The notes under the pieces were generated by a model. That model did no database searches, was not told where the DNA came from, and saw nothing but the letters and a program-made list of their open reading frames with translations. Positions 411 through 13,360 of a stretch of DNA of 64,000 nucleotides are shown one piece after another (within the stretch, counting starts at the first letter, position 1; every line of letters starts with the position of its first letter). Origin of the DNA: Candidatus Versatilivorator sp. GTDB lineage: Bacteria; Acidobacteriota; Terriglobia; Versatilivoradales; Versatilivoraceae. Location: the NCBI GenBank assembly GCA_965207735.1, contig OZ242296.1, forward strand, positions 1,536,001 through 1,600,000. The letters run 5' to 3'. A program made the position numbers and the translations under genes.

Positions 411-830
411 TTACCTGCACTCGAGAAACTCCCGTATCCGCTCCCCTACATCAGTACCCGTCTTTACCTCGCACTCCCACAGAATCATTACTTTCCAGCC
501 TAATTCATAGAGTTTTGCCACCTGTTCCGCGTCGCGGGTCACATTGCTTTTCAGCTTAGTTGCCCAGTAATTCAGGTTGGACCGGGGGGTTCGGGAATTC
601 TTGCAGGTGGTTGAGGGGTGTTGATGCCAAAAACAGCCATGAACGAAGATAACCTTTTGCAGGCGCGGGAAGACAAGGTCGGGTTTGCCCGGCAAGTCCA
701 TCCGGTGCAGCCGATAGCGGTAGCCCATCGAATGAACAAGGCGGCGCACCATCATCTCCGGCATCATTCCCTTGGACTTGATGTTGGACATGATTTCGCT
801 ACGCCTCTTGGAACTTACTGTGTCGGCCAT
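411..830 (-). CDS. vsr: Very short patch repair endonuclease Vsr
   Basis: MADTVSSKRRSEIMSNIKSK start, LPGKPDLVF, FVHGCFWHQH and LWECE are Vsr motifs; lies near a C5 methyltransferase. Confidence 0.95.
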   Translation of the reverse strand: MADTVSSKRRSEIMSNIKSKGMMPEMMVRRLVHSMGYRYRLHRMDLPGKPDLVFPRLQKVIFVHGCFWHQHPSTTCKNSRTPRSNLNYWATKLKSNVTRDAEQVAKLYELGWKVMILWECEVKTGTDVGERIREFLECR

Positions 831-1027
831 CGCCTAAGCTCGGATAGGGTTTCGTCGATAAACCAATCAAGGAAGCGAAAACGTGGTTTTGAGAATCATC
901 TCCTCAAGTTGGTCTGGTATGATTTGTCTCTTTTGGCTGTTATCTGTTAGAGACTTTACAGTTTGTGCAAATAGTGTCAGCAGGGTGCTGAGCATTGCGT
1001 CTCACTTCTACGAAAGCAAAAAACTCA

Positions 1028-2188
1028 ATGGAAAATCAATCTTCTGAAAGCACAATTGAGGGACGGCAGATCACGAGGATATCCCTGAACGAACTCTTGC
1101 TAGATCGTAACAACCCTAGATTTGGCCTACGGGGTAACGAAAAAAGCCAACAAGAAATTCTAGATCATATTGTAGAGAAATTTGGAGTAAACGACGTTCT
1201 GAGTTCACTGGCGGTGAATGGATATTTTGAGGCTGAGCCCATTGTCTGTCGCCGGATCCCCAAAACAAAAAGGGCTGTTGTTGTTGAAGGCAACCGACGT
1301 CTAGCAGCTTGCCTAATTATTCTCGGAGACAAGAGAGCGGCAAGCCAAGAGAAACGGTCGGCGGAATTTAGCGCTCTCTGGAATGAGAATAACCGCCCAA
1401 GGATCAACCCGGTACCGGCAATATTGTTCGAGGAGAAGGAACAGCAGAAAGCAATTCTTTCCTATCTGGGTGTGCGCCACATCGCGTCCTCACAGCCATG
1501 GGATTCGTATGCGAAGGCCGCTTGGGTTGCTCAGGTAGTCGAAGAAAGTGGTCTGGACATCCAGAGTGTTTCTCAGATGATCGGTGACCAGCACCAAACG
1601 GTGAACCGGCTTTTAGAGGGTTACTATTTGGTTCAACAATTGGTTCGGCAGGGCAGGTTTCATCCACAAAACAGTATTCGACGAGGCCGTGGAAGTGTTA
1701 CGGAATACCCGTTCTCATGGGTTTACACCATACTTGGCTATACGACAGTTCGTAAGTTTCTCGAGCTCTCTGATGGGGGTGCCCCACAAAATCCGGTCGC
1801 CGAAGACAAGTTGGACGGAGGCGGGTTGCTTTTTCGAGTTATGTTCGGCGACAAGTCGCGTGGCAGAAGTGCTGCTTTAGAAGATTCCCGTGAACTTGGC
1901 GACCTAGCAACTGCCCTTGCCAGTGATGAAAAGATTCGTCTTTTGGAACAGGGGAAGACGCTTGCTGAAATTGAAACTCTTACTAAGCCAGTCGAAAGGC
2001 GCCTGTCTGACGGACTTGACCTTGTGCGCGTCACGTTGAGGGATTTAGTTGCCAGTTTGTCTGAACAAGATATTCAGCAGAGCACTGCAACTAATTTCGT
2101 GAAGATTTCTAGCGGTAATCGCAAGATGGCCGTGGAACTCGATAGAAAGCTCAAGGAGATTGCATTTGGTGGGGATGACGAAGACTGA
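1028..2188 (+). CDS. ParB/Srx-like N-terminal domain protein
   Basis: LLLDRNNPRF and VVVEGNRRLAA (ParB GxRR motif); ATG at 1028 preferred over TTG at 995. Confidence 0.8.
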   Translation: MENQSSESTIEGRQITRISLNELLLDRNNPRFGLRGNEKSQQEILDHIVEKFGVNDVLSSLAVNGYFEAEPIVCRRIPKTKRAVVVEGNRRLAACLIILGDKRAASQEKRSAEFSALWNENNRPRINPVPAILFEEKEQQKAILSYLGVRHIASSQPWDSYAKAAWVAQVVEESGLDIQSVSQMIGDQHQTVNRLLEGYYLVQQLVRQGRFHPQNSIRRGRGSVTEYPFSWVYTILGYTTVRKFLELSDGGAPQNPVAEDKLDGGGLLFRVMFGDKSRGRSAALEDSRELGDLATALASDEKIRLLEQGKTLAEIETLTKPVERRLSDGLDLVRVTLRDLVASLSEQDIQQSTATNFVKISSGNRKMAVELDRKLKEIAFGGDDED

Positions 2189-3155
2189 CCCATATAGCCT
2201 TCGCCACCAAGCCCAGCGCTCGGCCAACCATGCCGATCAAGCCGAATTCTCTGCGCTAAAGAACGGTACAACGGTCATTGATACTGGAATTTATCATGGG
2301 CGTGTTGCAGGCGCGATGGACGATTTTGAAGCCCCAGATCTGGCTGTCCGCGAGTTATGGCATAACGAAGATCTAAAATTCGACAGCGCAGTAGGGAAGA
2401 TATACGAGGAGATCGAGCGTCGCAGCAAGACCATGGAAACAACTTATCCGTTTTCAATTGAAGAAGGATCATTAATTCACACACCAAGCAACAACTCAGT
2501 TTACGAATTTCTTTTGGCTATCTGTAATGCAGAGACTCTCACGGCGGGTGAACATGTATGGCTTCCCCGCTTGTTTGAGCGTCTTTCTGCTCGTTTGGTC
2601 GCAGCTTGTTTCGGCTCTGACACGCAATTTGTGCATACTGGAGCACCCAGAGATCCAGAAATCGGCACCTCCTTTAAGACAGCAATGCTGACTGTTGCTG
2701 AACGAACGTCGGAGTGGAACTGGGGCCCAGACGAGGGTCTGCCGGATGAGCCTGTCAACGGCGATGGTGGCTGCGATTTCGTTGTTTGGCCCGTTCCCCC
2801 AGACGGACGAAAGATAGGCCAGCTTTTCGTGCTCGGTCAGTGTGCTTGCGGTAACGATTGGCAAACGAAATTCAAGGATCTAACAATCAGGAGTCTATCT
2901 AAGTGGTTCAATCCACTATCGATTGTCGAACCAGTTCGATGTTTCTCAACCCCGTTCCATGTTACCGACGCAATGCTAAGAGAGGCGAGCCGTGAAGGGG
3001 GAATTGTCTTTGATCGCGCACGACTGGTTAGACTTAGCCGGCAAGTGGCAGAAGATAGGATTGAATCCGAAATTCAAAGCAAAATGAATCGTCTTATTGA
3101 ATTAGTGATCGGACAGCGCTACCAAATATCAGGAAGCGACTCTGCAACGGCCTGA
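2175..3155 (+). CDS. Putative Mrr-like PD-(D/E)xK nuclease-fold protein
   Basis: GDGGCDFVVW...VLGQCACGNDWQTK resembles the Mrr D..QxK core; start overlaps the stop of the ParB-like gene. Confidence 0.6.
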   Translation: MTKTDPYSLRHQAQRSANHADQAEFSALKNGTTVIDTGIYHGRVAGAMDDFEAPDLAVRELWHNEDLKFDSAVGKIYEEIERRSKTMETTYPFSIEEGSLIHTPSNNSVYEFLLAICNAETLTAGEHVWLPRLFERLSARLVAACFGSDTQFVHTGAPRDPEIGTSFKTAMLTVAERTSEWNWGPDEGLPDEPVNGDGGCDFVVWPVPPDGRKIGQLFVLGQCACGNDWQTKFKDLTIRSLSKWFNPLSIVEPVRCFSTPFHVTDAMLREASREGGIVFDRARLVRLSRQVAEDRIESEIQSKMNRLIELVIGQRYQISGSDSATA

Positions 3156-4072
3156 AATAATTGGGGAGGCACTGCATTTCCTATAGCTTCGTATTTCTGG
3201 CGCATCGTTCCGGTCTCAGGAAAGACTATATCGCTATCGAAGCCTTGCAGACACGCAGCCTCACGAAAAGAGAAACGTCTTCGAGGAGCATCTGACGACC
3301 AAACCCATTTATCAGTGTGGATGCGTAATAACTGGGGACTCAGTGGATGTAAAGGCATGTGTCGAGGATGGCTAACGATCGTCTTGCTCGGCTCTGACCA
3401 GTCGCGGCGCCTATTACGTGACATATAGTACCAATGGAATCCATCATCGAAGAATTCACCTTCTGGCCAAATTGTCATGCCAGCCAATGCTTCTGCAATT
3501 GTCTTAAATCTATTCTCCCCTTCTCGAGTGTGGGTCGGCTTTGGAAAGGAATAGCGCATGTCGATATCGCTCCTAATTCCAACGACAAATATTCTGACTC
3601 GTTCTTGGGCTACTCCGTAGCTAACCGCATTCAATAGATCATGTGACACCCTATATCCGGCCATCCGGAAACGAGTGATTTGATTGTGCAGGAGGTGTCT
3701 GAAATCACTACGCCGCATGCCCGGCACATTCTCGACTATGAATGCTTTCGGGCGTACCTGCCTGAGCGCACGATCAAATTCACGATATAAGTAGTTAATT
3801 CTTCTATTTGATACTCGGGCGCCCCCTTGGCTGAAGCCTTGGCAAGGGTAACATCCAACTAAAAGATCTGCCGTAGGGAATGACGGGATTTCGCCAACGT
3901 CTTTGCACTGAAAATCTGTTTCCGGCAAATTGGCTTCGTAGAGTTCTTTGGCAAACTGTGAAATATCGTTGGCGAATACAACTTCGAAGCCGGCACTCAG
4001 TAAGCCCGTATCAGAGCCGCCGCACCCGCTAAACAAGGAGACGGCTTTTGCTTTTGTCTTAGTTTTCAGCAA
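3119..4072 (-). CDS. DNA (cytosine-5)-methyltransferase
   Basis: SLFSGCGG (motif I), YPCQGFS (IV), ENVPG (VI), QERVRIF (VIII), IGNAVPP (X); exact start uncertain (TTG). Confidence 0.95.
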   Translation of the reverse strand: MLKTKTKAKAVSLFSGCGGSDTGLLSAGFEVVFANDISQFAKELYEANLPETDFQCKDVGEIPSFPTADLLVGCYPCQGFSQGGARVSNRRINYLYREFDRALRQVRPKAFIVENVPGMRRSDFRHLLHNQITRFRMAGYRVSHDLLNAVSYGVAQERVRIFVVGIRSDIDMRYSFPKPTHTREGENRFKTIAEALAGMTIWPEGEFFDDGFHWYYMSRNRRRDWSEPSKTIVSHPRHMPLHPLSPQLLRIHTDKWVWSSDAPRRRFSFREAACLQGFDSDIVFPETGTMRQKYEAIGNAVPPQLFQAVAESLPDIW

Positions 4073-4483
4073 CTCAGCAACTCTTATCTTGTTGTATTCT
4101 CTTTGAGAATCACCTTCTGATGGTCCTATCTTGAAGGTCCACCCCTCCTCTCCTCTGATAGTATCTCAATCACTGCAACAAATCATGGGGATAAAGAGCC
4201 GGGCTCGGGAAGAGCCGTTCTCTCATCGACCCAGGAAAATTCTCCGAGTTCCCCCTTTTCCACAGCCTCGACGGCGGGGCAACGGCGGGGATAATTCACC
4301 AAATTCCTCCCTCTGGCGTCGGACCTAAATTCGGAGGAGGGTCAATGCGCAAAGCGAATGCGCGCACATGGGAAGGACGCGGGATGCGCAGATCGGAGCA
4401 TCACCGACCCGACAGTGATCCATTCGACTGCAAGGCTCGGGGCGTGGTCTGCGGCCCCGTGGTTCCAATTCGATCCGGGCCAA

Positions 4484-4822
4484 CCGTAACTGTTCGGTCA
4501 AGCCGTGGCGCGCGTCGTCCTGCGCCGGGCCTATGGCTTCGCGCTCAATGGCGACCGAGCACCTGACGAAGTGCCACCCTTTCACCTCCGTGGGATGGAG
4601 ACACAGAGCCGAGAAGCGACCCGTGGTTGTCGGAACGATACGGTCGGAGCGCGTGGTAGGTAAGGACTTCGAGGCTGACGATCCTCTGCCGTTGTCCTGT
4701 CCGCGGGAGGTCTTGCCGCCGCTACGGCTGGCTCAAGCCCTACAGTAACCCAACGGGAATTGATCGCTACGGAGAGGATGCCGGTTCGACCACTCCACCA
4801 CAGCTTGACCGAACAGTTACGG
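4484..4822. mobile_element. 339-bp MITE
   Basis: Perfect 20-bp TIRs CCGTAACTGTTCGGTCAAGC (4484-4503, 4803-4822) flanked by direct repeat GCCAA (4479-4483, 4823-4827). Confidence 0.85.
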
Positions 4823-4957
4823 GCCAACCGTCCCTAAACGGCCACGAAGAGCCAGGGGAATCCGTTTTTTTCTGGAGGGCATAATGGTGGGCAGGACATC
4901 GTCTGGAAATCCATAAGTCCTTTGTATAAAATGTGTTACATCAATTCCCGATAACGT

Positions 4958-5095
4958 CCGAAGGGATCACTGTGGTGAGAGCGACCCTCCGAGGGGAGGT
5001 TAACCGTGAACTGCGGGGTGAAACGGCTAACCCTCCCCGATGGCGCACCAGCGTCCAAAAGGGTGGGGTCGCTCTCACCACAGTGATCCCTTCGG
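4958..5095. repeat. 30-bp perfect inverted repeat with 78-bp structured interior
   Basis: CCGAAGGGATCACTGTGGTGAGAGCGACCC at 4958-4987, reverse complement at 5066-5095. Confidence 0.9.
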
Positions 5096-5229
5096 GAAGG
5101 GCGAAATGAAGACCTGGAGCCAAGTCATTCTCGTCAACCTGGCCTTGACGGCCGTGGGCCTTCGGGTGTGGCTCGATCCCTGGCCCGCTTTGGGAGAAGT
5201 TCCCCTGCTTGACTTGGTTCACGCCACCG

Positions 5230-5312
5230 ATCCCTTGGGCCTAACTACACTCAGACCTCCAGATCCTCTCCCGGCCCTTGGTCCAGGTAACGCGCCCAGT
5301 CCCGGAAGCTGG
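5230..5312 (-). pseudogene. Relic of the 3' end of a second integrase copy
   Basis: Matches the integrase tail (ccagatcctc..., ccaggtaacgcgccca, gcccagtcccggaagctgg) with an internal deletion. Confidence 0.65.
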
Positions 5313-5916
5313 TCCGTCTGCAACCATTCGGGAATAGTAATCACAGTCCAGTTCCCCGCAGACGCGTGGGAATCCGAGCAAGAAACAGGCTCACCGGATG
5401 ATGGTGGAATGATCGACGATTTCCGTCTCTGGGGGTCAAGGCGGTGTCGTCAGATGGGCCGACACCTTTCCGAAGGGGGGGTGTCGGACTAACATGTCGG
5501 AGATCCTGCTACGCACAACGTCTTTCTCTCAGAGGGCGCGCGCTCGCCGTTGTGGTTCGGGACTTTCCCGAAACGCCTCATCAGACGCGGAACAACACGG
5601 ATTTCCCGCGTCCGCTGCGAAAAGGCGAAGCGAGGCTGCGCCTCGCGTGTCCCCCCCTCGCCCGGCGAAACGGCGCGCCGCACGAGAGGGGTGCTGGTGG
5701 AGAGAGCGCCCCCCCCTTTTTTCCCGCTGGTGCGCCACGGGCGCGGGAAAAGGTGTCGGCAAAGGTGTCGGCCCTTTGCCCCCCTTTTGGGGAGGTCGCT
5801 CTCTCAACAGTGATCCCTGAGGGAGGGCCGAAATGAAGACCTGGAGCCAAGTCATTCTCATCAACCTGGCCTTGACGGCCGGGGGTGTGCGGGTAGGCTC
5901 GATCCCTTGGGCCTCT

Positions 5917-7149
5917 TTACTCCAAGGGCTCCAGATCCTCCCCCGACCCCTGGGCCAGGTAACGCGCCCAATCGTCCATCAGGAGACGCCGGCGCTCGAA
6001 CAGGTCGGAGCGGGCATAGGCCGCCTCGACCCGATTCCGAACCACATGCGCAAGGGCGGCCCCGATCACCTCCCGGGGGTGGTCGGTCTCCTCGGCCGCC
6101 CAGTCCCGGAAGCTGGACCTGAACCCGTGCGGCACGGCTGCAATCCCCTGCTCGCGGACCAGCCATCGCAGCTCCTTGTCACTGAGCGGCTTCCCCTGCC
6201 CACGGGTGAACACCAGAGGACCGGCTCCTTTGCCCAGGGTCCGTGCCGCCTCGAGAATCTCCAGGACACGTCCACACAGCGGCACCCGGTGCTTCCGGTT
6301 GGCCTTCATCCGACTGGCCGGGACGGTCCATACACCAGCGTCCCGATCGATCTCCTCCCACTCGGCCCAGCGCACCTCACTCCACCTGGCTGCCGTAAGC
6401 ACCAGGAACTCGAAGGCCAGCTTGGCCACCTCCTCTGCCGTCGATGCCTGCACCGTCCGGATGGCCGCGGCCACCTCCCGATGCGGCAAGGCCCGCATGT
6501 GCTCGGTAACGTCATGTTGGGGACCCAGGACCGGGCCGATCCTGTCGCAGGGGTTGTCGATCCTGTACTCCATGGCTACGGCCCATTCCAGGACCGCACG
6601 CAGGCGCTGGCGCACCCGCCGGGCGCTGGAGGCCTTCCGGTGCCAGATAGGGGTGAGGATCTCAAGCAGGTCGGCGCTGGTGACCTCGGAGACCGGCATC
6701 TTGCCGATGCGCGGGAAGGCGAACCGCCTCAGGCTGGACATCCACTCGCGGTGGTGACGCCGGCCTCGCCATCCGTCCCGCTTCTGTTCCAGCACACGCG
6801 AGGCGGCTTCGGCGAAGGTGGGGATACCCTCGGTGCGTCGCTTCTCGGCAAGAGGATCTCCGCCCTCACGGGCCAGCTTGCGGTTGGCCAGGGCCTTCTC
6901 CCTGGCCTCGGCCAGGGAAACCAGGGCAAGGCTGCCGAGACCGAGCTCCCGGCGACGGCCACGGACGACGAGGCGTTGAATCCAACTGCGGGTTCCGCTG
7001 GGCTGGACGAAGAGGTACAATCCATTTCCATCGGCGTATCTTCCGGGCGGAGCGGAGCGCAGGAAGGCGGCCGAGAGGGCGTTGCTGGGGTGGCAACCGG
7101 TGGGTTTGGTCTTGGGTCGGAACGGAGCGAAGTCCGTTACAGTATCCAT
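5917..7149 (-). CDS. P4-type tyrosine integrase with arm-DNA-binding domain
   Basis: YADGNGLYL arm-binding motif; catalytic TAAR, HGFRSSFR, LAH, AAY; ATG at 7149. Confidence 0.93.
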   Translation of the reverse strand: MDTVTDFAPFRPKTKPTGCHPSNALSAAFLRSAPPGRYADGNGLYLFVQPSGTRSWIQRLVVRGRRRELGLGSLALVSLAEAREKALANRKLAREGGDPLAEKRRTEGIPTFAEAASRVLEQKRDGWRGRRHHREWMSSLRRFAFPRIGKMPVSEVTSADLLEILTPIWHRKASSARRVRQRLRAVLEWAVAMEYRIDNPCDRIGPVLGPQHDVTEHMRALPHREVAAAIRTVQASTAEEVAKLAFEFLVLTAARWSEVRWAEWEEIDRDAGVWTVPASRMKANRKHRVPLCGRVLEILEAARTLGKGAGPLVFTRGQGKPLSDKELRWLVREQGIAAVPHGFRSSFRDWAAEETDHPREVIGAALAHVVRNRVEAAYARSDLFERRRLLMDDWARYLAQGSGEDLEPLE

Positions 7150-7355
7150 CCCCCCATTATATGGGGGATGGCAGTGGATTGCAAGGGATGTTGGTGGCAA
7201 GACAAGCCACGGCAGGACTTATATAAGACACTCATAAATAAGACAGTTATAGACTCTACTGGACGGCACTAGACATCACTGGAATTTGAATGGCCGTTGC
7301 GGCGGCGGCAGCAATCCTCCGCTGCTTGACATCAAACGGCTCACCGTCCACTATT

Positions 7356-10723: not shown

Positions 10724-13360
10724 TTATGGCCGCACCTTCAATTCGCTTGCCGAAATTCGCTTATGAATGTCAACCGCCACCTTCAGCACTTCCGCAGGGG
10801 CGCGCACTGACTCCCCAGAGCGCTGCCGGAGGGCAAGGATCAGGGGTCCCAGGGCACCGGCCTTGGTGCGATCTCCTGAAAGAATCTTGGCAACTTCGCG
10901 CTCAGAAGCGCCGACTGCGATGAAATGAATCCCGAGCCTGATCATGCAGCCAACCGGAACTTGATGGGTTGCCGGGAACAAAGCGTATGCCGAACGAAAC
11001 GCTTCCATGGCGTTCGCTGTTTCCCCACGCGCCATCATCGCGATCGCTCTCACACACCCTCTTTGTGACTCAATCCCGGCCTTCAATTGTCCCCGCAGCA
11101 AAGCGAGCTTCTCTTCAAGCTCCTCACACACCTTGTCGGCCTCTTCTATCCGGCCGGTCTCGACCAGACTCATGCTCTTGAACACCAGGGCTAGCGGCAC
11201 AACGTGCGGCTCCGTATCACTTTCTCCGGCGCCACCGACGAATCCAATCAACTCATCGTACGACTCTATTGCCCCTGCGAAATCGTCCATTGCACCTTGC
11301 ATGAACGCCCGATTCATGAATGCGCTGATTACCAAGCGTTTGATTTGAATGTCCTTAGTCGTTCGAAAACCGCCGATCACCTCATCGAGTGCTGCAAGAG
11401 CGGTCTCATCGTCGCCGAGTTGCAATCGCGCGATGAAAGCCTTTCGGGTCAACGCGATGGCGATTGTTTCCTGCAATTCGGCCGCCTCATGGCCTCGAAA
11501 ACGATCCAGAATGTTGTCGAACATTGAAACGGCAGTCTCGTAGTCACCGAGTTGCCTTTTGATTTCCGCCGTCAAAAGCAGGCCTGCTCCGACAAATTGT
11601 TGGAACTGGGGATGGTTGTATTTTCCGAACCAATCGACTAGCTCCCCTGCACTGGCGACGGCCTTGGGAAAATCGCCAAGTTCAAAATGCGAGGCCGATT
11701 TCCGATAAAGAATCAGCGCGGATCGAATAAGAATGGACGTGTCTCGGCTGCCTCGAAGCCGATCGAGAATCTCCGAGGCGACTGCAGTCACCTTCTCGAA
11801 ATCTCCCATGCCGAAATAGGCTTTAACCCTCAATTGCGCCAAAATCACCAAGTCATGCTCCTGGGAGGTCTTGGAACGATAGGTCCAACCCGCGGCAACA
11901 TACTGATCGATGCATTCGATCGCTCGCATCCATTCCCCAACCCGAAGTGCGGATTCAATCTCCTCCCGAAGACGGATTTGAGCCTCCGAACCACGATAAT
12001 CCAAGGCTGTCTCCGACACACGTTGCAGGCGATCCCAGACGATTCTTGAATCCAGGTCCGTTTCGACCGGTCGTTTGGTGAGAGCACGGTCGATTCCACT
12101 CAGCAAGGAGGGCGAGTCCTTCACATCGGACCAAAGCGTGTCAAATACCGGATTAAGGACGGAAGTGTCGTAAAACGCCACCATGAACCGGATGAGACTC
12201 TCTACCACCGCCGCTTCGTCACGCTCGCGACGAAGCTTGTAATAGATGCTGTAGAGGGGTTCTGCGGCGCAATAGAGCCGCTTCTTACTACCTGTCCAGC
12301 GGTCCGGCGCCACCACTCCGCGATCAATCAAACGCCCGAGCATGGTCGAGACCACACGAACGTCCATGCGGGCGCGCTCGGCGATCTCGCCGGTGCTTGA
12401 AGGCTGCCAGAGGTCCATGATTGCGATGTAAACCCGCCTCTCGCTCTTCGGCAAGGCTTCCAGATGGCCGCGGAAGTACTCGGTTTGTTCGTCGATCAGG
12501 CGGACGAGCTCTTCCATCAACGCACGAAGCGAGCGGTGTTTGGAGAAACCGGCCACGACCACCAGCAGCCGGGGATTTCCGCCCGTCAGGATCTCAAGCG
12601 GCCGGATTTCCCGCGCACTGACCCGATCTCGGCTGACCGCCTGCCACAAACGGTGGCATTCTTCGGTCGCCAACGGCGTAAGGTCGATGACTCGGAACAA
12701 TTCGAAAAAGGGTTCTTCCGCGTCGTCCAGTCCCTCGAACCGGCTGGTTGCCGAAGCAAGCATCATGATCTGGGACTCGGACTGGAGCGCTGCTCGAAGC
12801 TGCCAGCCGAAATCGTCGTCGACACTTCCGCAGAGCGTTTGCAGGTTCTCGACCATAAGCACGAGCTTCCGGCCGATGCGTTCCGCCGCGTTGAGAACCA
12901 CGGCGCGGGCACGGTCCCCCAGGGCTCGCTCGCGCCAGCGTCCGGATAAATCCGCATGCGTTTCTCGCAGCTCCCGGGCAAGTTCCGGATAACTTGCCGC
13001 ACTCTCTCTTGCCAGATGGAACAGCGTCTCCAACCAGAAGTCCGCCACATCGAATATTTCATGGCTCTCTTCCATGAATCGAACCGGCAACAGGAATCGG
13101 GAGAACTTGTCTTTGGTACGCAGCTCCGCCGCGGCGCGAGCCAGCAGCATCGTTTTTCCTCTGCCGCGCGGAGCAACGATCAGGACATGCTGGCAAGAAG
13201 GCGATTCGATGTTCCCCTGCAGTATTTCGAGCACGGTATCGAGCTCGCGGTTTCTGACTACGAACTGATCCACCACCTTTTGGTCGGACTGGAACATGCC
13301 CGGATTGAACTCTCGGACCAAATTCCCCGGGGGTCTCGCGCCGGGGATTTTCCTGGTCAT
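10724..13360 (-). CDS. STAND-like P-loop ATPase with HTH and C-terminal TPR repeats
   Basis: APRGRGKT Walker A, LMVENL Walker-B-like, TGGNPR GxP motif, GEIAERARM HTH, repeated TPR-like helices. Confidence 0.85.
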   Translation of the reverse strand: MTRKIPGARPPGNLVREFNPGMFQSDQKVVDQFVVRNRELDTVLEILQGNIESPSCQHVLIVAPRGRGKTMLLARAAAELRTKDKFSRFLLPVRFMEESHEIFDVADFWLETLFHLARESAASYPELARELRETHADLSGRWRERALGDRARAVVLNAAERIGRKLVLMVENLQTLCGSVDDDFGWQLRAALQSESQIMMLASATSRFEGLDDAEEPFFELFRVIDLTPLATEECHRLWQAVSRDRVSAREIRPLEILTGGNPRLLVVVAGFSKHRSLRALMEELVRLIDEQTEYFRGHLEALPKSERRVYIAIMDLWQPSSTGEIAERARMDVRVVSTMLGRLIDRGVVAPDRWTGSKKRLYCAAEPLYSIYYKLRRERDEAAVVESLIRFMVAFYDTSVLNPVFDTLWSDVKDSPSLLSGIDRALTKRPVETDLDSRIVWDRLQRVSETALDYRGSEAQIRLREEIESALRVGEWMRAIECIDQYVAAGWTYRSKTSQEHDLVILAQLRVKAYFGMGDFEKVTAVASEILDRLRGSRDTSILIRSALILYRKSASHFELGDFPKAVASAGELVDWFGKYNHPQFQQFVGAGLLLTAEIKRQLGDYETAVSMFDNILDRFRGHEAAELQETIAIALTRKAFIARLQLGDDETALAALDEVIGGFRTTKDIQIKRLVISAFMNRAFMQGAMDDFAGAIESYDELIGFVGGAGESDTEPHVVPLALVFKSMSLVETGRIEEADKVCEELEEKLALLRGQLKAGIESQRGCVRAIAMMARGETANAMEAFRSAYALFPATHQVPVGCMIRLGIHFIAVGASEREVAKILSGDRTKAGALGPLILALRQRSGESVRAPAEVLKVAVDIHKRISASELKVRP

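Follow-up and report, generated by a model that had tools for sequence, protein, structure and literature searches.

The locus at positions 411 to 4072 of the window, that is, of the whole stretch of 64,000 nucleotides analyzed here from contig OZ242296.1 of Candidatus Versatilivorator sp., raises the question of what two coupled genes, hereafter gene A and gene B, do between a convergent C5 cytosine DNA methyltransferase (C5 methylase) gene and a divergent vsr gene. A sequence-only reading of this DNA had proposed a non-canonical restriction system composed of a ParB-like nucleoside triphosphatase (NTPase), an Mrr-like protein, the methylase and Vsr, and its account of the four genes, with their order, their strands, the 37-nt overlap between the convergent 3′ ends of B and the methylase, and the divergent vsr, was reproduced position by position (Table 1). 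Our analysis makes it reasonably probable that the cassette is a restriction-modification (R-M) defense system, in which the methylase would mark self DNA and A and B would form the restriction module; the A-B module itself is real, widespread and unnamed, and is probably defensive. This reading is drawn from the pairing and covariation of A and B, the adjacent modification genes, the retained catalytic-type residues, residence in the P2 hotspot, the nearby Zorya type II genes and the kinship with PD-lambda-5.

The pairing of A and B was examined in 143 rows holding B, namely 59 GTDB loci and 13 and 37 viral loci from pattern scans, six annotated records and 28 loci from a hidden Markov model (HMM) census; many of the phage rows barely differ, and two loci were apparently reached twice. 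The pattern scans favor the clade of the window, and the census is less biased. The census covered four groups, in which the B family occurs in 16/301, 10/401, 3/401 and 2/401 of the genomes sampled, and four centre genomes were excluded to give the 28 loci. Gene A lies immediately upstream of B in 136 of the 143 loci, so the arrangement is not due to chance, and the pairing is regarded as obligate; of the seven exceptions, six are at a contig edge and one has B split by an insertion. The coupling of the two genes proposed earlier was confirmed: A and B are translationally coupled and, in the window, overlap by 14 nt. The two families also covary, with a rank correlation of 0.83 between their identities in 90 representatives and 37 of the 50 supported splits of B shared with A; over 52 loci the A-B correlation is 0.73, against 0.29 and 0.20 for A and B with the methylase, figures that are descriptive because kin are not independent. 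Fusions of A to B were absent from 7,992 candidate proteins of 619–2000 aa, which is weak evidence. By profile search (E ≤0.001), the B family amounts to 2,571 clusters at 50% identity.

The modification partner of the pair is exchanged among loci. Over all 143, the neighboring gene was labeled as a C5 methylase of the GCYPCQ clade at 102, another or truncated C5 enzyme at 12, a D12 adenine methylase at nine, an N6/N4 methylase at five and dnd genes at three, with no modification gene at 12. For the census, labels come from a Pfam scan of 72 proteins (70 of the 92 listed neighbors plus two), and the 28 loci divide into C5 (eight, one of them 3.4 kb away and one broken), D12 (Dam-like; nine), N6/N4 (five), dnd (three) and none (three); a DNA methylase stands beside the pair in 22 and dnd genes in three more. 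With a C5 enzyme at just 8 of the 28 loci, a C5 methylase is no fixed part of the module, and the association is with DNA modification as a whole. The neighborhood comparison therefore upheld the conserved pairing of A and B while also revealing homologues beside D12, N6/N4 or dnd genes or beside none, a finding that the sequence-only reading had regarded as telling against itself. Both D12 enzymes checked resemble PD-Lambda-5_B (L140, E 3e-105; L169, E 1e-110). The three dnd-linked pairs (L165:1257-13559, L166:1445-8650 and L167:418-7504) could represent an unreported restriction module linked to phosphorothioate (PT) modification. The pair of L165 lies between dndBCDE and dndH; L167 carries a DndE-HerA fusion, and a full dndFGH set was not seen within the 14 kb examined of L166 and L167. 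In a Bradyrhizobium locus (L015:11288-12541, open reading frame starts only), a second ParB-like protein with the motif DNPR occurs near A-B together with a different C5 methylase, an SNF2-like gene and a vsr.

Gene B encodes a protein of a family for which Pfam offers no match (0/55 members). Its AlphaFold2 model, with a predicted local distance difference test (pLDDT) score of 86, is predicted to combine a winged helix with an MspJI/FokI-like PD-(D/E)xK core. The best Foldseek match is MspJI (E 1.6e-3), and with VIA the alignments of the core to AF1548, MspJI, N.BspD6I, FokI and PaqCI all score between Z 7.1 and 8.2, about one unit apart; residues 5–109 weakly match winged helices (Z ~5–5.5). 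Core residues correspond to E135, D201, Q222-C-A and K232, of which D201 and Q222 are conserved in all 90 representatives, K232 in 88 and E135 in 82, and these catalytic-type residues are retained at 20–25% identity. The DGGCD and QCA motifs noted earlier were located at residues 197–201 and 222–224, but the lysine of WQTK, described as lying six residues beyond QCA, is K232, ten residues after the glutamine and eight after the alanine. Among 128 aligned proteins, 125 have K232 and lack lysine at the canonical position 224, and the other three read QCK and lack K232. The two lysines are thus mutually exclusive in 128/128 proteins, which points to a relocated catalytic lysine and supports its assignment to K232. 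As for the Mrr-like designation, the predicted PD-(D/E)xK core close to MspJI and FokI agrees with it, but the literal Mrr motif is absent and neither Mrr_cat nor the methyl-directed restriction endonuclease models of Pfam matched any of the 55 members.

For gene A, likewise, no Pfam family matched, and profile searches of A and of B against PDB sequences returned nothing significant. Its AlphaFold2 model, built from 78 sequences (pLDDT 84), matches ParB/Noc by Foldseek at E 1e-4, with 11 rows at E ≤0.001. With VIA, KorB, PadC, sulfiredoxin and pNOB8 ParB span Z 7.5–8.4 (KorB and PadC both 8.4), Spo0J aligns to residues 36–295, and alignments of the ParB, KorB and SopB DNA-binding domains cover residues ~135–330 at Z 4–6 (about 143–302 for KorB and SopB). 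The predicted parts are a nucleoside triphosphate (NTP)-binding domain of ParB/Srx fold, a helix-turn-helix (HTH) at about residues 178–207 and C-terminal helices. Because the DNA-binding domains align as well, A appears to fit the full canonical ParB/Noc layout, with NTP pocket, HTH and C-terminal helices, and not the NTP domain alone. The structural searches proposed for A and B by the earlier reading therefore yielded ParB/Noc for the former and MspJI first for the latter; its ParB-like NTPase held as regards the ParB/Srx fold and the invariant GxxR box, but was too narrow, given the predicted DNA-binding domain. The motif GNRR at residues 88–91, also noted before, is part of a set (R31, E87-G-N-R-R91, H151 and W158) that is invariant in 90/90 representatives. 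A may bind ATP, CTP or GTP (adenosine, cytidine or guanosine triphosphate), and the accessible text of PMC12704722, which describes the canonical ParB layout, states that the nucleotide is not predictable from sequence; the Box I loop GYFEAEP of A resembles the ATP-binder examples in that text, a weak hint at most.

The methylase is intact, with motifs I, IV, VI, VIII and X present as FSGCGG14, PCQ76, ENV114, QERVR156 and GNAV298; it and Vsr are ordinary members of their families. It belongs to the GCYPCQ clade and has a HaeIII-like target-recognition region. Its best PDB match is M.HaeIII (E 2e-48), relative to which it keeps MSRNR and the T and R after it but differs at two places farther along the target region. 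Among the PADLOC matches listed, the best model is DruM (E 2e-107). All 83 distinct GCYPCQ-clade methylases in the loci share HW(Y/H)Y.SR(N/D)R, from which the clade likely has one target. Of the 102 loci with this clade, 86 have the methylase on the downstream side, convergent; in 10 it follows on the same strand, and in six it lies upstream. A vsr gene is near 16 of the 102 and is an optional accessory of the C5 methylase. Vsr repairs T:G mismatches arising from deaminated 5-methylcytosine (5mC). The C5 methylase and Vsr, proposed earlier as parts of the system, are consequently both present in the window, but neither is constant among its relatives, given the census count above for the former and 16/102 for the latter.

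Residence in prophages connects the module with known defense loci. A close orthologue occurs in 37 of 5,426 complete E. coli genomes, and in both orthologue records opened it is flanked by gpA and the portal gene in a P2-like prophage. A further 226 E. coli genomes is the count for related methylases, and in all four additional records opened a trio of ParB, hypothetical and methylase genes fills that P2 slot; their methylases are 59–61% identical to that of the window, and A and B are far more diverged. One of these trios, in prophage Wphi of E. coli W (mth, gp96 and gp98; L075:5001-8039), is an intact distant version of the cassette. Work of the 1960s reportedly found that Wphi lysogens restrict some phages. 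Meanwhile, 13 phages in GenBank carry the Wphi-type B and none the Erwinia-type B, and a plasmid search returned four distant A matches, no B match and no methylase match at E 1e-60. According to the accessible text of PMC9122126, the P2 gpA-gpQ slot is a validated anti-phage hotspot, and the systems validated there are others than the A-B trio. In the part of Rousset et al. consulted, Table S5A lists 'hypothetical + DNA_methylase + hypothetical' and 'ParBc + DNA_methylase + hypothetical', which correspond to these trios and are unnamed.

Among known systems, the cassette comes closest in its probable working to type II R-M, to which an NTP switch would have been added, and PD-lambda-5 is its sister, as developed below. 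PD-lambda-5 is a validated defense of a ParB/HEPN protein and a methyltransferase (Vassallo et al. 2022, PMC9519451, accessible text). Its PADLOC model PD-Lambda-5_A shares with A a ParB-like N-terminal subfamily (E to 1e-13), and both kinds of system have a methylase partner and travel as prophage cargo, the PD-lambda-5B-like methylases of L140 and L169 being used by A-B pairs. Unlike PD-lambda-5, A is devoid of the HEPN part and matches the model over the first 150–215 residues only, whereas a true member (L169:7423-8907) matches it at full length (E 3e-170); moreover, the A-B effector is a separate PD-(D/E)xK gene, and the methylase of the window is C5 and not of the PD-Lambda-5_B type among the matches listed. 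A PD-lambda-5A-like gene adjoins the A-B pair in L169:4472-8907 and L177:6389-10914, and in L169 this gene and the pair flank one PD-lambda-5B-like methylase, which is possibly shared. With type II R-M systems containing a C5 methylase and Vsr, the cassette has in common an intact methylase nearest to M.HaeIII, a convergent nuclease gene and an optional vsr, and B supplies the linked endonuclease with a PD-(D/E)xK core (predicted fold, conserved D201, Q222 and K232, modest fold scores). In contrast, its 386-aa ParB-like partner is obligatory, which argues against the usual helper-free type II form, and A-B also occurs with adenine or N4 methylases or dnd genes.

Resemblance to other systems is partial. 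MspJI is the best Foldseek match of the B core (with VIA, FokI, N.BspD6I and AF1548 score within 1 Z unit of it), has a D...Q motif and, according to the accessible text of PMC2938202, has a C5 methylase and a vsr in its locus; B nevertheless reads QCA with its lysine at 232, bears a winged helix in place of an SRA N-terminus, is paired with a ParB-like partner and matches no Mrr model, and, lacking the D...(Q/E)xK motif of that source, it is not assigned to the Mrr/MspJI group. GmrSD, BrxU and SspE, in which a DUF262 ParB-fold NTPase is joined to HNH, likewise couple a ParB-fold NTP switch to a DNase, but A-B has EGNRR instead of DGQQR, a separate PD-(D/E)xK gene in place of HNH and usually a cognate methylase; given also the lack of a Pfam match for A and a Z of just 3.8 between the A model and BrxU (VIA), membership was rejected, and the ECOR17 GmrSD doublet did not fit either. 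Most of the length of A-family proteins is matched by the first 350 positions of the PADLOC candidate PDC-M38A, but this 715-position model has an ABC/AAA_21 ATPase as its C-terminal half and gives no match to B profiles, so that it is not an A-B fusion, and the cassette was not assigned to PDC-M38. The CTP-dependent clamps ParB, Noc and KorB (PMC12704722, accessible text) share with A the predicted NTP pocket, central HTH and C-terminal helices; A differs in having a nuclease and a methylase as partners, and since its neighbors in the window are vsr, B and the methylase, with no adjacent parA, ParABS partition was set aside. Druantia type II was rejected because only the methylase matches a Dru model (DruM) and A, B and vsr match none, the genome beyond the cassette not having been scanned for DruE; Ronin was compared and did not fit. 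The earlier statement that no named defense system matches therefore stands for PADLOC and all systems compared. The A-B pair was not described in the open literature found (subscription journals and REBASE being out of reach), nor was the module in the accessible text, supplements unseen, of PMC10853773, PMC12839542, PMC3091744, the PADLOC PDC preprint, DefensePredictor and the Ronin preprint.

Assembled into a mechanism, these components suggest that the methylase would mark self DNA and that A, binding NTP and unmarked DNA, would recognize or load at unmethylated sites via its HTH and close on NTP by analogy with ParB. Loaded A would recruit or switch on B, and B, as a predicted PD-(D/E)xK nuclease, would cut the unmarked DNA, with Vsr expected to mend the T:G mismatches left by deaminated 5mC. 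We further put forward, tentatively and as a possibility short of probable, that A and B constitute a new mechanistic class of restriction, in which a ParB-type, NTP-closed sliding clamp on unmarked DNA carries or activates a separate nuclease and is portable among 5mC, Dam-like N6-methyladenine, N6/N4 and phosphorothioate marks.

Several observations weigh against the restriction-modification reading. The recognition helix of the A HTH varies among clades whose methylase target region is nearly identical, and such variation beside one methylase type fits poorly with simple one-site recognition by the helix. Avoidance tests brought out no target site: in 159 kb of module DNA, a codon-shuffled test gave mild, non-specific deficits (CCWGG 211/302, GGWCC 181/232) with GGCC outside the 25 lowest sites, and genome-wide GGCC stands at 0.94 of expectation. 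The nuclease-fold match of B is modest (Foldseek E 1.6e-3, VIA Z ≤8.2). A modification gene is absent from the DNA examined at the 12 loci counted above, several complete Bacteroidetes neighborhoods among them (two of the 12 end just past B and two are short contigs), and dndC was found elsewhere in only one of five genomes with a methylase-free pair. Finally, MspJI, among the closest folds of B, cuts methylated DNA despite the adjoining C5 methylase and vsr (PMC2938202, accessible text). Four Bacteroidetes pairs (L056, L057, L058 and L059) lie among housekeeping genes with no methylase nearby and keep all catalytic-type residues, and they are candidates for a modification-dependent branch.

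These points bear on the alternative that A and B form a type IV-like nuclease that depends on modification. It would be the two-gene counterpart of GmrSD/BrxU, with a PD-(D/E)xK core, and would cut foreign-modified DNA, while the accompanying methylase would shield the element from other restriction systems, as at the MspJI locus. The first place of MspJI among the Foldseek matches of B, with the C5 methylase and vsr of its own locus (PMC2938202, accessible text), the methylase-free pairs at 12/143 loci and the combination of a ParB-fold NTPase with a nuclease, which is the GmrSD plan in the accessible text of PMC12373910, all agree with it, and the pair of L165 need not use the PT mark of the dnd genes that enclose it. 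We nevertheless judge this alternative unlikely: a modification gene adjoins the pair in 25 of 28 census loci and belongs to unrelated methylase classes, an association not easily accounted for were the pair independent of it, the B model contains no SRA domain, and the PADLOC methyl-directed model matched just one of 55 members (E 0.0066).

The pair might also be an abortive-infection (Abi) or guard module, with A sensing nucleotide levels, phage DNA or methylase inhibition and freeing B to degrade host DNA. PD-lambda-5, its relative, is described as a compact RM and Abi system (PMC9519451, accessible text), ParB-fold proteins have been proposed as nucleotide sensors or effectors in defense (PMC10853773, accessible text), and A-like domains are fused to an ABC ATPase in PDC-M38A; but the predicted winged helix of B is of DNA-binding type and its predicted core of restriction type, not that of an RNase, and the invariant target region of the methylase suggests a fixed self-mark, so we hold this to be quite unlikely. 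Very little credence is given to B as an ordinary type II restriction enzyme acting alone, with A as a transcriptional controller or a partition-like factor of a mobile element. The fold of A does resemble KorB/VirB-type regulators, and B possesses its own winged helix, as SdaI or FokI do, yet B practically never occurs without A, which is translationally coupled to it and co-varies with it, and no parA adjoins A in the window. Controller genes of type II systems are, moreover, generally small and optional.

Restriction by A and B next to a self-marking methylase would have practical and mechanistic consequences. Neither Pfam nor PADLOC offers a model of the B family, so a genome that contains it is recorded as possessing an orphan methylase. 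E. coli W, a safe laboratory strain, was called restriction-minus by Archer et al. (PMC3032704, accessible text) and carries the intact trio in Wphi. If A works as a clamp, the ParB nucleotide switch would extend from segregation and transcription to immunity, and the reuse of one nuclease with different self-marks would be explained. Restriction in such a clamp class would be powered by a partition-protein switch instead of a helicase or AAA+ motor, and Wphi would provide a natural copy.

Table 1. Coordinates of the cassette and of its context, in window numbering unless indicated.
Feature	Position	Strand	Assignment
vsr	411-830	minus	Pfam PF03852 (Vsr) E 2.9e-26; TIGR00632 135.9 bits (cut-off 97.85)
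gene A, 386 aa, ATG start	1028-2188	plus	predicted ParB/Noc/KorB-like DNA clamp
gene B, 326 aa, ATG start	2175-3155	plus	predicted winged-helix + PD-(D/E)xK nuclease
C5 cytosine DNA methyltransferase	3119-4072	minus	PF00145 E 4e-60
tyrosine integrase (context)	5917-7200	minus	PF22022, PF13356, PF00589
Zorya II trio	-5002 to -1897 (G000:C1:1531000-1534100; L178:11002-14104)		zorA, zorB, zorE

The start of gene A was placed at the ATG at 1028, in agreement with homologues of 385–390 aa, and the TTG at 995 given by the ORF finder is an extension; the start codon of the methylase is uncertain, with a TTG at 4072. A 197-nt interval separates the divergent vsr and A. The placement of the cassette in low-GC (guanine-plus-cytosine) DNA beside an integrase was also verified (49.2% for 411-4072 against 61.9% for the genome). 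A second integrase copy just upstream of the window flanks the cassette on the other side, and since the same genome (G000) contains another 17 copies that are 1000 nt or longer (81–98% identity), the integrase marks a mobile neighborhood and is not a dedicated recombinase of the cassette. Segments of 4400-5950, between the methylase and the integrase, are repeated 4 to ~50 times in the genome; together, integrase and repeated DNA resemble a proliferating element that bears an integrase and encloses cargo genes. The complete Zorya trio, 1.9–5.0 kb upstream of the window and just upstream of the left integrase copy, places the cassette in a defense island. Elsewhere in the genome, a second vsr homologue (43% identity) lies at G000:C1:2650117-2650440, and the C5 methylase of the window is the only one found by tblastn. 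At 10724-13360 of the window, on the minus strand, an 878-aa ORF with the P-loop APRGRGKT and a repeat-like helical C-terminus resembles, by eye, a STAND-type NTPase.

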